Below are positions 17,023 through 27,079 of a stretch of 64,000 bases of DNA, piece after piece; position 1 is the stretch's first letter, and every line of letters begins with the position of its first letter. The translations under genes and the position numbers were made by a program. A model generated the notes under the pieces. It saw only the letters and a program-made list of their open reading frames with translations, did no database searches and was not told where the DNA came from. The stretch comes from an uncultured Desulfospira sp. (lineage in GTDB: Bacteria; Desulfobacterota; Desulfobacteria; Desulfobacterales; Desulfobacteraceae), in the NCBI GenBank assembly GCA_963663165.1, contig OY760175.1:2816001-2880000 (forward strand), given 5' to 3'.

Positions 17023-17131
17023 CGTGCAGGGAAATATCCGGGTTAGGCTGAAGGTATTTGAAGCCCCCCAATCCCTTCAGCCTAAATTTTATTATTATCC
17101 CTATCACCCAAACAAAGTGCTGTTAACTACG

Positions 17132-17164
17132 GGCAAGTTACATGCGATCACCCTGACCGGCCCA
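17132..17164 (+). repeat. 33-bp direct repeat, copy 1
   Basis: ggcaagttacatgcgatcaccctgaccggccca, identical at 21487-21519; here it is the left arm of a hairpin ending at 17182. Confidence 0.9.
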
Positions 17165-17455
17165 CAGGGCAATCGCATGTAAAAGAAAGCCATCTATTCC
17201 GCAATTGAAAATAAGGATAATCTCCAATTATGTAGCGTGTTTGATTATGTTGTGAGTTTTATTCATTTTTATTCAAAAAGATTTTTCAAATCTTTCATTT
17301 TATTCGTATAATTCCAAATCATATGCATAGAAAAAGCCCGGAGTAGCCCCTCCGGGCTTTGATTGTGAACTCCCGTCGATAGCCGGAGAAGCCCACACAC
17401 ACAGTTATATTTCTATATCATTTTCCGGTTATCTGCAATACCGGAAAAATCTAAA

Positions 17456-17842
17456 ATGCTTTTAATTCCAAATACATGCCGATGGTGCCATTTCGTATTT
17501 TTTGTTTGCAGGTTCTGCTGGAGAGGGCAGGCCTATTGTTGCAGGGACTGCCGTAAGGCCGGAATCCTCAGAAACAAAAGAGAAGCACAGCGACGATACC
17601 GCCAGACCGAGAAGGGGAAAAGACGGCATCGGGAAGCCGAGAACCGGCGTCGGCATCGAAAAAAAATTCAAGAGACAAAAAACATGGATGATACAGCTTC
17701 CACAGTGCTGCCTGCTTGGTGTAGGACAATAATATTGTGGATTTTGTTTCAGATTCAGGGCCTTCCAATCAAACCATATTGTCAGTTCTGCGGCTCTTCA
17801 GGTCAAGTCGTCACACAATTTCCCCGGCGGGGATATGGATAA
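17456..17842 (+). CDS. Cys-rich, basic hypothetical protein (putative zinc finger)
   Basis: CRWC..CRFC..YCCRDC, Arg-rich helix, C-terminal CQFC. Confidence 0.7.
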   Translation: MLLIPNTCRWCHFVFFVCRFCWRGQAYCCRDCRKAGILRNKREAQRRYRQTEKGKRRHREAENRRRHRKKIQETKNMDDTASTVLPAWCRTIILWILFQIQGLPIKPYCQFCGSSGQVVTQFPRRGYG

Positions 17843-18275
17843 ACGTAAAAACTGGAGGCGCGGCATGGTAAAAAAAGAAATCCTGAACCCTTCAAGGGTG
17901 CGTTGTATCAAAGGAGGATTTAGTTTTATCCCCCATCGGTTTCTTACGGGTGGATTTTTGCGAGCATTAAGCCGGGACGAGTTGTTATTGTATTTTTTCC
18001 TGGTTCTGGCCGGTGACCGCAACGGATTAAGTTTTTACAGTTATGATAAAATATGCACCCTGCTAAAAATGCAACTGGACCAGTACATTGAAGCTCGGGA
18101 TGGATTGATGGAAAATGATCTGATTGCCTTTGACGGCACCATTTACCAGGTGCTTTCCTTACCGGCCAACCTTATACAATCTGCTGTACAAAAAAAATCT
18201 TCCCTGAACAGCCGTCAACCTGAATCAGTTGGAAAAATTTTGAGCAAACTGGTTATGGAGGCCGATCATGGTTGA
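17835..18275 (+). CDS. Putative HTH DNA-binding protein (start may be 17865)
   Basis: GFSFIPHRFL..LLLYFFLVL..GLSFYSYDKIC; overlaps both neighbours. Confidence 0.7.
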   Translation: MDKRKNWRRGMVKKEILNPSRVRCIKGGFSFIPHRFLTGGFLRALSRDELLLYFFLVLAGDRNGLSFYSYDKICTLLKMQLDQYIEARDGLMENDLIAFDGTIYQVLSLPANLIQSAVQKKSSLNSRQPESVGKILSKLVMEADHG

Positions 18276-19185
18276 GCAGACACCCAAAAGTCCGCCCGGT
18301 TATGATCTGGATCAGATCCGCCGGGATTATCTGGACCATATGCTTAAAATCAAGGAAAGCTCTCCTTCTCAAACCTGTTGCAGGACCAAAATTATCAAAG
18401 CGTTTGACAGTTATCTGCAAACATCGGGAGTCTCACTGGTCAATATAAACATAGGGCATGTTGATGATTTTCTGGCAAGGTTCAATGCCCCATATGCAAA
18501 GAGTACCCAGGGGGTATACCGTTCCTGTTTTCGAGGCTTTTTGCACTACCTGTATAATGAACGGCATTTGATCCAACAGAATTTAGCCCCGCTTGTGACC
18601 GGTCCGCCAATGTTTGCTCAAGTCAAGCCTCCTAAATTTTTAAGACCCGGTGAAGTCCGTCAGTTATTTGATCATTTGCCCTGTGCAACATCCAAAGAGC
18701 TTCGTGTCTATGCACAGGTTCACCTGGCTTATTATCTTGGATTGCGCCCCATTGAAATCAGCCGCCTTACTCTGGACGATATCTGTTTTGCCAAAGGACT
18801 GCTAAACCTGGAAAACACAAAAAATGCAAAGCCCCTTCAATTGCCCATTCCCGATGAAGTTATCAAAGCAATCACCGCTTATATCGTTGGAGGCAGGCCT
18901 AAAAGTCAGTCTCGCTCTCTTTTTTTAACCAGCCATTGCCCACCTTACAGAGCTGTAAGTGCCTGGCTCACCAGGCACGATTTAACAAAGGCGTTGCGGG
19001 CTGCCGGTCTTCCCGGTACAGGATATTGGCTGCGCCACACCTTTGCACAAAACATGCTGGAAGCAGGTGCCGGCATTTTTGAAATCAAAGAAATGATGGG
19101 GCATTCCATCATTGATTCCACAAAAGTATATCTAAGTATCCACAAGGAATTGATGCGCCGGGTGTTGTTCGATGAAACCGTTTAA
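18268..19185 (+). CDS. Tyrosine recombinase, first of trio
   Basis: GLRPIEI, YWLRHTFA, MGH, TKVY. Confidence 0.92.
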   Translation: MVEQTPKSPPGYDLDQIRRDYLDHMLKIKESSPSQTCCRTKIIKAFDSYLQTSGVSLVNINIGHVDDFLARFNAPYAKSTQGVYRSCFRGFLHYLYNERHLIQQNLAPLVTGPPMFAQVKPPKFLRPGEVRQLFDHLPCATSKELRVYAQVHLAYYLGLRPIEISRLTLDDICFAKGLLNLENTKNAKPLQLPIPDEVIKAITAYIVGGRPKSQSRSLFLTSHCPPYRAVSAWLTRHDLTKALRAAGLPGTGYWLRHTFAQNMLEAGAGIFEIKEMMGHSIIDSTKVYLSIHKELMRRVLFDETV

Positions 19186-20146
19186 AAGCTTTTTGGCCAC
19201 AGAGATGGAAAACTTTATTGTTTACCGGCAAGGACTGGGATACAGTTGCCATATGCTCCGGTGGGCCTTGCTTACCTTTGACGATTTTTTAATGAGGCAG
19301 CCGGATCTCTCAGACATTTGGATGCCCCATTTTTATATCACCTTTAAAAATGAGATTGGCCTTGAGCCCTCCGGCGTAGCCAGCATTCTAAATGTAGTTC
19401 GAGGCTTTTTTGATTATCTGAAACGGCAGCGGATAAATCTTGATAACCCTTTGAAAGATGTGACCGCTCCGGCCCGACGCACCTTCATCCCCTTTATATT
19501 CTCACCGGAGCAGGTAGAAATGTTACTGGGGGTGGTATGCGGACGGATCCGGCAAACCCCTATGCGGTTCCTTAAAGATTACAGTGAATATCTGGTGATC
19601 CTTCTGCTTGCCCGCTGTGGGCTGAGGATGAATGAACCCTTGCGCCTGAGATTGAAAAATTACCGGCCGGATGAAAAGACGATTTACATAGAGAAAACCA
19701 AGTTCAAAAAGGACCGTCTTATCCCTATTCCAAAATCAACTGCCATGCAGATTGACAACTATCTTTTAACCAGGGCCGCTTTAATTGAAAACGATATGAA
19801 TCCCTACCTGTTCATGGGGATAGGGGAAAACGGCTTGAACGATAACCGTATTCGCTCTGTTTTTCACGATGCTGTGCGTCAAATCGGGATCCGCCGCCCA
19901 AGGAAAATTATCGGCGACACGACCTTTGGGAAGCCCACTCCGCACTGTTTACGGCACTCTTTTGCCATTAACACCTTGAAGGCAGCCATTGCCCGGAAAC
20001 AATCACCCCGGAATGTGCTGCCGGTGCTTGCCGGCTATATGGGTCATGTTGAGTATAAATACACCATGGAATATTTGAAAGCAGTTGATGCTGAAAGCCG
20101 CGACAGCCTGTTCAAATTTACCACCGGCAGAAGGGATGAATCATGA
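19172..20146 (+). CDS. Tyrosine recombinase, second of trio
   Basis: GLRMNE, KTKFKKDRLIP, HCLRHSFA, YMGH..TMEYL. Confidence 0.93.
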   Translation: MKPFKSFLATEMENFIVYRQGLGYSCHMLRWALLTFDDFLMRQPDLSDIWMPHFYITFKNEIGLEPSGVASILNVVRGFFDYLKRQRINLDNPLKDVTAPARRTFIPFIFSPEQVEMLLGVVCGRIRQTPMRFLKDYSEYLVILLLARCGLRMNEPLRLRLKNYRPDEKTIYIEKTKFKKDRLIPIPKSTAMQIDNYLLTRAALIENDMNPYLFMGIGENGLNDNRIRSVFHDAVRQIGIRRPRKIIGDTTFGKPTPHCLRHSFAINTLKAAIARKQSPRNVLPVLAGYMGHVEYKYTMEYLKAVDAESRDSLFKFTTGRRDES

Positions 20147-21162
20147 ACCTGACCCGTTGCGTTGTTCAATTTTTTGACCAATACCTGCCTTATGTCAAAG
20201 GGTGCCGCCCCAATACGATCAAAAGTTACCGGGATACCATGCGCTTTTTTTTACCGTTTGCTGCCGAGTACCACAGCGTAAAGGTCAGTTCGCTCAATCT
20301 GGAACATATCACGGTAGAATTAATTTTGCAGTTTCTCAATGAGCTTGAATCCAAACGGTCCAACACGGCTAAAACCCGGAACCAGCGCCTGGCCGTTTTA
20401 AAGTCTTTTGCCAAAATGATCCGTTTTATTTATCCCGAGCAACAAAAACTGACCAATGCGATCCTTGATATTCCCCGGAAACGAAGCCAACACAAGTTGA
20501 TCGGATTTTTGTATCCCCAGGAGATCAATCAAATCCTTAATGCGGTCCAACTTAAAAGAAAGGACGGGTTCCGAGATTATACCCTTCTGTATCTATTATA
20601 TGATACCGGTGCCAGGGCAACGGAAATCGCTACCCTTGAGATGGATTATTTTGATTATGAAAATCAAACTCTGGCGATTCTTGGGAAGGGTAACCGATAT
20701 CGACAAGTTCAGTTGCTTGGGAAAACAGTAGAGCTTATGCATCAGTATATTGAAGAACATCGCAATACGCCAATCCATCCGTTTAAAAAAAGGCTGTTCA
20801 TCAACCAAAGAGGAACAAGCTTGACCCGCCACGGTATCAACCGGATCTGTAAAAACTACCTTGAACAGGCTTTACCGGCAAAGCGGACAGCGACCATGCA
20901 CCCCGTCCATAGCTTCCGTCATTCGTGTGCCGTTCGAATGCTCTCAGAGGATCGGCCTTTATCTGAAATTAAGAATCGCTTGGGGCATTCTAATGTCAAA
21001 TCCACAATGGTTTACTTAAAGCTTGATCTAGGCCAGAAGCGACATTTACAAGAGAACTTCATCCAGTTCACCAAACAGCACCTGAAATCTGATCCGAAGA
21101 TTGAGGAGTTGATCCAGTGGGAAAACAAGCAAAACGTTCTTGAGTGGCTGGATAGTCTATAG
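20143..21162 (+). CDS. Tyrosine recombinase, third of trio
   Basis: NTIKSYRD, TRNQRLA, GARATE, GKG, HSFRHS, LGH..TMVY. Confidence 0.93.
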   Translation: MNLTRCVVQFFDQYLPYVKGCRPNTIKSYRDTMRFFLPFAAEYHSVKVSSLNLEHITVELILQFLNELESKRSNTAKTRNQRLAVLKSFAKMIRFIYPEQQKLTNAILDIPRKRSQHKLIGFLYPQEINQILNAVQLKRKDGFRDYTLLYLLYDTGARATEIATLEMDYFDYENQTLAILGKGNRYRQVQLLGKTVELMHQYIEEHRNTPIHPFKKRLFINQRGTSLTRHGINRICKNYLEQALPAKRTATMHPVHSFRHSCAVRMLSEDRPLSEIKNRLGHSNVKSTMVYLKLDLGQKRHLQENFIQFTKQHLKSDPKIEELIQWENKQNVLEWLDSL

Positions 21163-21345
21163 ATCCTTACAGACTTCATCACCAGCACTCCTCAGGGCAA
21201 ACTGTAGCTGTTTATTATGTTTAGTGATTTGTTGCAAATTTGTCATACCCTTGATAACCCACTGTTTATTTGAACGATTTTGACTTACGGCATTACGGCG
21301 CCCAAACCACCGTCAATCAAGGCTTCAGGACCGCTCGCAACATAA

Positions 21346-21459
21346 CTCCAAAAAATTGGACTTGGGACTTGGGATATGGGACCTGGGGATTGCGGCATCC
21401 ACGGCCTCCCCAAGTCCCATATCCCATATCCCAAGTCTCAACAATATACATTATTATCC
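21346..21459 (+). repeat. 114-bp hairpin repeat, copy 1
   Basis: Identical to 26966-27079; arms built from ttgggac/tgggata and tcccata/tcccaag heptamers. Confidence 0.95.
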
Positions 21460-21486: not shown

Positions 21487-21519
21487 GGCAAGTTACATGC
21501 GATCACCCTGACCGGCCCA
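21487..21519 (+). repeat. 33-bp direct repeat, copy 2
   Basis: Identical to 17132-17164. Confidence 0.9.
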
Positions 21520-26840: not shown

Positions 26841-26965
26841 GCCTGTTCTGGCGAGTCCTTTTCACTAGAGCCTGTTTATCGGATTTTCTATGTACAACAG
26901 ACTGAGCCATTTGGCAAATAGCCGGCCCATCGTACTGAGTATAATTTTTAAAAATTAAGAATGAT

Positions 26966-27079
26966 CTCCAAAAAATTGGACTTGGGACTTGGGATATGGG
27001 ACCTGGGGATTGCGGCATCCACGGCCTCCCCAAGTCCCATATCCCATATCCCAAGTCTCAACAATATACATTATTATCC
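26966..27079 (+). repeat. 114-bp hairpin repeat, copy 2 (uninterrupted site)
   Basis: Identical to 21346-21459. Confidence 0.95.

Follow-up and report, generated by a model that had tools for sequence, protein, structure and literature searches.

A five-gene RIT variant whose 6-bp junction core may act as a switchable integration address

What decides where a RIT-type element, with its three adjacent tyrosine recombinase genes, inserts in a genome? The question is raised by a 64,000-nucleotide stretch of DNA from an uncultured Desulfospira sp. (GenBank assembly GCA_963663165.1, contig OY760175.1, positions 2,816,001 to 2,880,000), here called the window, in which such an element abuts a dispersed hairpin repeat of its host. 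Plain coordinates refer to the window and those headed G000:C1 to the host genome, a single contig. The element is a recently spread five-gene RIT variant. We consider it probable that it moves as a circle and integrates by tyrosine recombination at weak AT-rich sites holding its own 6-bp core; most copies would then lie at the repeat because the repeat's edge carries that core.

The ends of the element are defined to the base. All motifs named in a preliminary description of this DNA are at the places it gave (left end 17228, inner site 17245, right end 21345), CTCCAA is indeed present on both sides at 17222-17227 and 21346-21351, and the reading of the locus as a RIT-type element with exact ends and a 6-bp core between inverted half-sites is supported. 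The check proposed there, a search for other copies with the same ends, returned eight full-length copies in the genome, 99.85-100% identical and with the same first and last base in all; relative to the window copy, four are identical and four carry 5-6 substitutions, partly shared. As eight full-length copies start and stop at the same bases, the ends are not due to chance, and their recurrence at different sites indicates that the element is mobile as a unit. In assembly graphs from three runs of one sample in a second study, the element is collapsed to one 4130-bp piece consisting of core, 4118 bp and core; the DNA studied here may stem from these runs. Its GC content is 45%, against 50% for the genome. 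The element and its end features are:

17228-21345 (+): RIT-type element, 4118 bp, with CTCCAA on each flank
17222..17227 (+): left 6-bp crossover core CTCCAA, found directly left of 7/8 copies
17228..17256 (+): left end with two tandem recombinase half-sites of TTATGT type, 17 bp apart (17228 and 17245)
21215..21226 (+): internal half-site set in from the right end by about 130 bp, in inverted orientation to the terminal site
21334..21345 (-): right terminal half-site, found in 136/160 related loci
21346..21351 (+): right 6-bp core CTCCAA, with which the host repeat begins; CTCCAA in 7/8 copies, CTTCAA in one

Inverted similarity at the element tips spans only about 12 bp, to which the tandem site on the left and the inner site on the right are added. 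The TTATGT of the internal right half-site is invariant in 15/15 aligned right ends and a comparable inner site is present in the RIT of plasmid pHG1, suggesting that it is likely an accessory binding site.

Whether the core is a property of the element or of the target can be judged from relatives, which were collected with an alignment of six RitC proteins (the third recombinase). It matched 280 loci in genomes and at least 380 in metagenomes, and the best 80 from each set, mostly labelled as sulfate-reducing lineages, were taken. Ends were assigned by a rule that ignores cores in its final form and was revised twice after failures, the tandem spacing being widened to 16-18 bp and the left score cut raised. 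Left ends, each with a tandem pair in this spacing range, were obtained for 82 of the 160 loci, right ends for 136 and both for 72, corresponding to 69 unique sites. At 59 of these 69 the left and right cores are identical, compared with a mean of 7.4 and a maximum of 17 in 5000 shuffles; six of the others differ at one base, three at three and one at four. The matching sites hold 17 distinct cores, with the terminal sites remaining the same. How often two different sites share a core depends on RitC identity (31/37 pairs at 97% or more, 94/125 at 90-97%, 276/462 at 80-90%, 31/244 at 70-80% and 102/5565 below 70%, the pairs not being independent). Neither a free duplication nor a coupling sequence that varies freely would give this pattern: the core is inherited and slow to change.

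The host genome repeats the picture on a smaller scale. It holds two further RIT families of four copies each, with cores TGGTAT and GTCTAT, the same terminal half-sites and mostly unique flanks, such that the core is fixed within a family and differs between families of one genome: CTCCAA (8), TGGTAT (4) and GTCTAT (4). One GTCTAT copy abuts an orphan end, and a 99.6%-identical twin of that end elsewhere carries TGGTAT. The GTCTAT copy and the orphan end together form an end-core-end junction, the kind predicted for the circle, and one end is seen with two cores.

Cores can also differ between close relatives and agree between distant ones. In a quick maximum-likelihood tree of 106 RitC proteins, the window element belongs to an 11-row clade (SH-aLRT 100) with eight TGCAAG and two GATAAT members. 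CTCCAA recurs in a distant clade, only about 54% identical (L087, L097 and L125), as well as at the left end of L085, and none of the five element proteins is closer to these distant CTCCAA elements than to the TGCAAG sisters. The RitC proteins of L149 and L148 are 94% identical and three of six core bases differ, on both flanks; those of L071 and L165 are 99% identical and both L071 cores are altered. Among ten mismatched sites, the odd core is on the left in four, on the right in four and on both sides in two, and just 1/19 changed bases falls at core positions 5-6 (p 0.005, in a hand-picked set). This set omits L081 (four mismatches, probably a wrong right end) and L116 (no known donor core), and L092 was swapped for the identical site of the own genome; L092 and L244, from another assembly, each seem to be exact duplicates of a site of this genome and do not count as independent evidence. 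An internal guide or spare copy of the core was considered and rejected for this clade, the own core being present in the non-coding ends of 9/59 elements against 8.4 expected.

We then turned to the host repeats at the insertion site:

21346..21455 (+): host hairpin repeat A, about 110 bp, with 7-base subrepeats and arms at 21359-21389 and 21407-21437
26966..27075 (+): unoccupied paralogous copy of repeat A
17132..17182 (no strand assigned): host hairpin repeat B (hairpin 17138-17182), present at 42 loci, with a partial copy at 21487-21519

Repeat A folds at -32.9 kcal/mol (z -7.6) and has 71-76 look-alikes of at least 40 bp in the genome, or 124 loci when partial ones are counted. The partial copy of repeat B makes the insertion target a composite B-A-B repeat. 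The uninterrupted site that the preliminary description had noted near 26950 is such a repeat copy, its CTCCAA being at 26966-26971, and the suggestion that a host repeat family serves as target was borne out in part: in 6/8 copies the right end abuts the start of repeat A, always in the same orientation, but the family is not a required target because 2/8 copies are at unrelated sites. These two, at 5568541 and 5588389, have unique right flanks that start with the same core followed by TAAAA. At copy 5568541 an insertion sequence (IS) adjoins the left end, and removing it in silico yields a left core that differs at three positions. This IS (G000:C1:5566999-5568540, 1.54 kb, at least seven copies, 4-bp YTAW duplication) lies exactly at the left end of that copy. 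Copy 6122073 has CTCCAA on the left and CTTCAA on the right, and unoccupied CTTCAA variants of the repeat exist. Among 65 repeat A copies with the loop motif, six hold an element, 36 carry CTCCAA or CTTCAA but no element, and the edge of the other 23 is different; AAG at -9 to -7 is found in 5/6 occupied and 13/36 empty copies (p 0.07, not significant).

The preference for the repeat edge depends on the comparison made. Against all CTCCAA hexamers (41/1932 at repeat edges) it reaches p about 2e-9, whereas against CTCCAA with AT-rich arms (22/48 at repeat edges), a motif picked after the targets were seen, p is about 0.10. Among the relatives, none of 88 flanks folds below -20 kcal/mol, compared with -32.5 here; the distant L097, L085 and L087 have CTCCAA cores in flanks without this repeat, and of the 25 flanks in three multi-copy relatives only two pairs are related. 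The repeat is therefore a hot spot and not a requirement, best explained by the core. The repeat edge matches in 3/81 genomes of the family including this one, and the congener G001 has 31 edge matches with no RitC match at E 1e-40 (9/61 genomes match). Since G001 carries the repeat without a close RitC, the repeat is independent of the element, and the idea that the element makes it was rejected. At the orthologous intergenic position G001 has neither element nor composite repeat (a gap of 127 bp against 384 bp), so the repeat itself is polymorphic between the two species and the comparison gives no allele-level confirmation of the empty site; neither G002 nor G386 yielded an orthologue of the locus.

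In order to rationalise these patterns, we hypothesise that an end-core-end circle would recombine with an arm-core-arm target by strand exchange that is tested by homology, first at core positions 5-6. Tyrosine recombinases normally require identity in the overlap region, IntDOT at one side only (PMC2817482; papers cited by PMC number are used here as far as their text was available to us). Matching cores would leave identical flanks, whereas a mismatch would give heteroduplex junctions that resolve either way, to which the distribution of the ten mismatched sites between left, right and both is a fit. A rare mismatched integration could leave one junction with the core of the target and thereby seed a new address for the lineage, and the CTCCAA/CTTCAA copy does match the unoccupied CTTCAA variants. 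This lineage would have switched from TGCAAG to CTCCAA in such a way, gaining dozens of intergenic landing sites. We infer the circle, the homology-tested exchange starting at positions 5-6, the mismatched integrations and the change from TGCAAG from these patterns. More tentatively, and with clear reservations about the whole, the element can be pictured as a DNA-addressed integrase in which the 6-bp junction core is a heritable, switchable address read by base pairing, and six changed bases would retarget an unchanged three-recombinase machine; the lineage would have switched to the edge of a host repeat that has recently been spreading, and would have multiplied at that edge, and its initiator-like winged-helix gene, interchangeable with a primase-type zinc finger and common to IS21, would prime copy-out replication.

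Several observations sit uneasily with an address read by base pairing, and some of them would suit recombinases, or an accessory protein, that read the core and its neighbours directly, the core changing only as protein specificity evolves. Cores are strongly clade-structured, as a core-reading protein would also give, whole clades keeping one core and core sharing dropping with RitC divergence. The branch of this element's RitC is comparatively long (0.24; the closest sisters have end branches of 0.007-0.05), so that protein change accompanied the core change. The bases beside the core vary with it, flanking-base preferences differing between core types, and the left arm of the targets fits the sister-clade profile better when shifted by one base (6/7 sites, for a profile of only eight sequences); neither the register shift nor the varying neighbours are explained by plain 6-bp homology. 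In addition, single mismatches could be post-insertion mutations, the left core of copy 5568541 was reconstructed across the inserted IS, where an IS-caused deletion is possible, and neither the circle junction nor an empty allele of this locus was observed. Direct protein read-out is nevertheless unlikely in our view, given that the same core recurs in clades about 54% identical, that elements with RitC 94-99% identical have different cores, that one 99.6%-identical orphan end carries two cores in this genome, and that positions 5-6 are largely spared by mismatches, as expected if homology is tested at the first exchange.

Recognition of the host repeat itself, as a hairpin or through a bound host protein, with insertion at its edge, would account for six of eight copies sharing one edge and one orientation (p about 2e-9 when compared with all CTCCAA sites) and for right flanks with 71-76 genomic look-alikes, and IS elements that insert into repetitive extragenic palindromic (REP) sequences are known (PMC1525189). 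We regard it as improbable: two of eight copies lack a hairpin, the enrichment loses significance when AT-rich arms are required (p about 0.10), comparable hairpins are found in 0/88 flanks of relatives, and the two other RIT families here and the three multi-copy relatives lie mostly at unrelated flanks. The least probable alternative, to which we give very little credence, takes CTCCAA as a normal target-site duplication, or as a coupling sequence that is homology-free like that of Tn916, shared among copies by a founder effect. A direct 6-bp repeat on both flanks and mismatched junctions of both polarities are what it would lead one to expect, but the element encodes no DDE enzyme, a free duplication would vary by copy while 7/8 right cores are CTCCAA at independent sites, and homology-free exchange would give unlike left and right cores where 59/69 match.

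The circle itself was sought directly. The predicted junction is absent from the assembly and from the Logan contigs of six runs (X1-X6), but as such contigs drop rare variants its lack there says nothing against a circle. The 35-base reconstructed empty site has one exact match elsewhere in the genome, in the repeat copy at G000:C1:4108576, which is a paralogue and not an empty allele of this locus. The empty-site joint does appear in X1 and X4, at depths of 196 and 130, close to the single-copy level, but this paralogue accounts for it and it was not taken as excision.

The element encodes five overlapping genes, two of which lie inside the ends upstream of the three recombinases and were absent from the preliminary description:

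17285..17312 (+): promoter-like site ahead of the operon, with a perfect -10 box ending at 17312; putative function
17332..17360 (+): terminator-like leader hairpin, a possible attenuator
17456..17842 (+): orf1, 128 aa, Cys-rich, with 10 invariant Cys/His
17835..18275 (+): orf2, 146 aa, winged helix, HTH_36 below cut-off
18268..19185 (+): ritA, 305-aa tyrosine recombinase, short form without about 110 N-terminal residues
19172..20146 (+): ritB, 324-aa tyrosine recombinase
20143..21162 (+): ritC, 339-aa tyrosine recombinase

The -10 box is kept in 7/9 aligned left ends, window element included. Catalytic motifs (R, RH, H and Y in RitA) are present in all three recombinases, whose genes overlap by 14 and 4 bp, and in blastp each finds its best match in the pHG1 gene at the corresponding position (29%, 25% and 32% identity). 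The alignment of RitA covers just residues 117-413 of a relative with 415 aa and residues 145-408 of pHG1 RitA; the short form is also found in 27/53 complete relatives scored. No family above cut-off and no fold match at Z 5 or more was obtained for orf1. For orf2, whose predicted model has a pLDDT of 79, initiator structures top both structure searches (Foldseek 5KBJ, E 0.014; 4PTA, Z 8.3, root-mean-square deviation 3.3, 86 residues aligned); we take 5KBJ and 4PTA to be staphylococcal RepA_N plasmid replication initiators. The 4PTA match is tied with CRP-family rows at Z 8.0-7.8, that is, with generic winged helices, and a role of the accessory genes in a replicative (copy-out) step is therefore only a lead.

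How does this organisation compare with known systems? The pHG1 trio of Cupriavidus necator (NC_005241.1:51476-54721) lies on a plasmid named as RIT-rich, and typical RIT gene overlaps are 4-8 bp, with multi-copy RITs known (PMC3414803); RitA has been described with two sequential core-binding domains (PMC8138268), free RIT intermediates as possible (PMC5737581) and similar cassettes in Bifidobacterium (PMC2430713). The window element resembles RITs in its three adjacent overlapping tyrosine recombinase genes in the order RitA-RitB-RitC with catalytic motifs in all, in its multiple identical copies and in its TTATGT-type end motifs, also found at the pHG1 element. It differs in having five genes and 4118 bp instead of three genes and about 3.5 kb, a 305-aa RitA that lacks the N-terminal segment and so departs from the two-core-binding-domain form, and, apparently, a terminal inverted repeat of only about 12 bp instead of 28-34 bp. 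Given its five genes and 4118 bp, we file it as a RIT variant and not as a canonical member.

Strand-biased circularizing elements (SEs) and Tn554 likewise have several tyrosine recombinases, a 6-bp spacer between terminal motifs and selected targets, but there the donor spacer goes to attR and the target spacer to attL, leaving flanks that differ (PMC10214605), whereas here flanks are identical at 59/69 sites and mismatches show no side bias. The one-sided need for identity of IntDOT/CTnDOT and Tn916 would match the conserved positions 5-6, although their coupling sequences vary by site (PMC2817482) and here the whole 6-bp core is normally matched. REP-targeting IS such as ISPsy8, ISPpu9 and ISRm22 also have most copies at one position of a dispersed palindromic repeat, but use IS transposases (PMC1525189), in contrast to the tyrosine recombinases here, for which the repeat preference is not a family trait. 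In IS21 elements with two upstream hypothetical genes (such as NZ_CP049160.1, SBC1_RS39065-39080) the Cys-rich and winged-helix pair likewise comes first, but a DDE transposase and an ATPase take the place of the three tyrosine recombinases.

A 2023 paper states that RIT transposition was not reproduced in the laboratory and lists target specificity and empty sites as untested (PMC10214605). No att core or target rule is given in the parts of the RIT literature covered (PMC3414803, PMC8138268, PMC10214605), Ricker et al. 2013, which may describe ends and targets, being outside that coverage. Five-gene RITs, element-specific 6-bp cores and RIT insertion at dispersed repeats were not found described in a literature search that did not extend to Ricker et al. 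2013, Van Houdt 2009 or supplements, which may bear on novelty. With its exact donor ends, predicted junction and eight natural targets, and with dozens of empty cognate sites in the same genome and core variants that occur naturally, the locus makes the target rule directly testable. If the core is a switchable address, this would explain how one family reaches very different targets and would offer a DNA-retargetable integration tool; the hot spot, for its part, illustrates a mobile element gaining many intergenic landing sites via a host repeat.

Minor observations concern the host repeats. Repeat B is often joined to repeat A in a composite, which is absent from the orthologous spacer of the congener, and a further hairpin lies upstream of the insertion at 17043-17085. 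Repeat A has no Rfam match at gathering score. Repeat A was also considered as a candidate REP of a RAYT (Y1 transposase): among 11 of 14 PF01797 loci checked, one has a repeat A copy within 2.5 kb, with another gene between, and no repeat A copy falls within G000:C1 1360000-1375000. At G000:C1:1448282-1449454 a four-helix-bundle (PF05635) gene is bordered by 7-base arrays resembling those in repeat A; such arrays are missing at two further PF05635 genes.

The further RIT families have peculiarities of their own. Inside its left end the TGGTAT family carries an antisense passenger gene (L001:345-770, minus strand) with what is presumably a SEC-C-like Cys motif, and in a GTCTAT-family target at G000:C1:7849-11911 the core is surrounded by a near-perfect 10-bp inverted repeat. 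Three orphan RIT-type ends, which have RIT cores but lack recombinase genes, lie at G000:C1:4446853 (minus strand), 2337517 (plus strand) and 2890958, with no partner end within 9-12 kb. Cargo is found about 200 bp away from each, either a RhuM-family gene, seen in two nearly identical copies of which one is broken into two open reading frames (ORFs), or a gene pair that we take to be an AbiE-type toxin-antitoxin.

The accessory pair extends beyond RITs. Among 69 complete relatives, 54 have a Cys-rich gene and a winged helix, 10 a Cys-rich gene and a CHC2 primase-type zinc finger, four the Cys-rich gene alone and one a CHC2 gene behind another ORF; the Cys-rich class pools five queries, which may not form one family. 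The Cys-rich and winged-helix pair also stands ahead of IS21 genes in five copies in this genome and in Caballeronia. At 21 other winged-helix loci in 300 genomes of the phylum, the neighbour is IstA in 12, RitA, a ParB-like gene and IstB in one each, and matches no query in six. The five-copy IS21 element of this genome (G000:C1:5395500-5400400, 4.5 kb) has orf1, the winged helix, a third gene, then istA and istB; the third gene, without a Pfam match, is presumably ParB-like. A copy of orf1 also precedes a CHC2 gene in a six-copy, ATPase-bearing transposon of 4.3 kb (G000:C1:1893000-1897600, six orf1 copies), in which the orf1 and CHC2 zinc-finger genes are followed by a 184-aa ORF, a transposase-like protein of 555-582 aa with no Pfam hit above cut-off and finally an AAA ATPase; several copies of this transposon are nested in another multi-copy element of 1.4 kb. 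In genome G005, an eight-copy composite (L040-L047 and L233) opens with a broken IS21 front (Cys-rich and winged-helix genes) and continues with two nested sets of recombinases.

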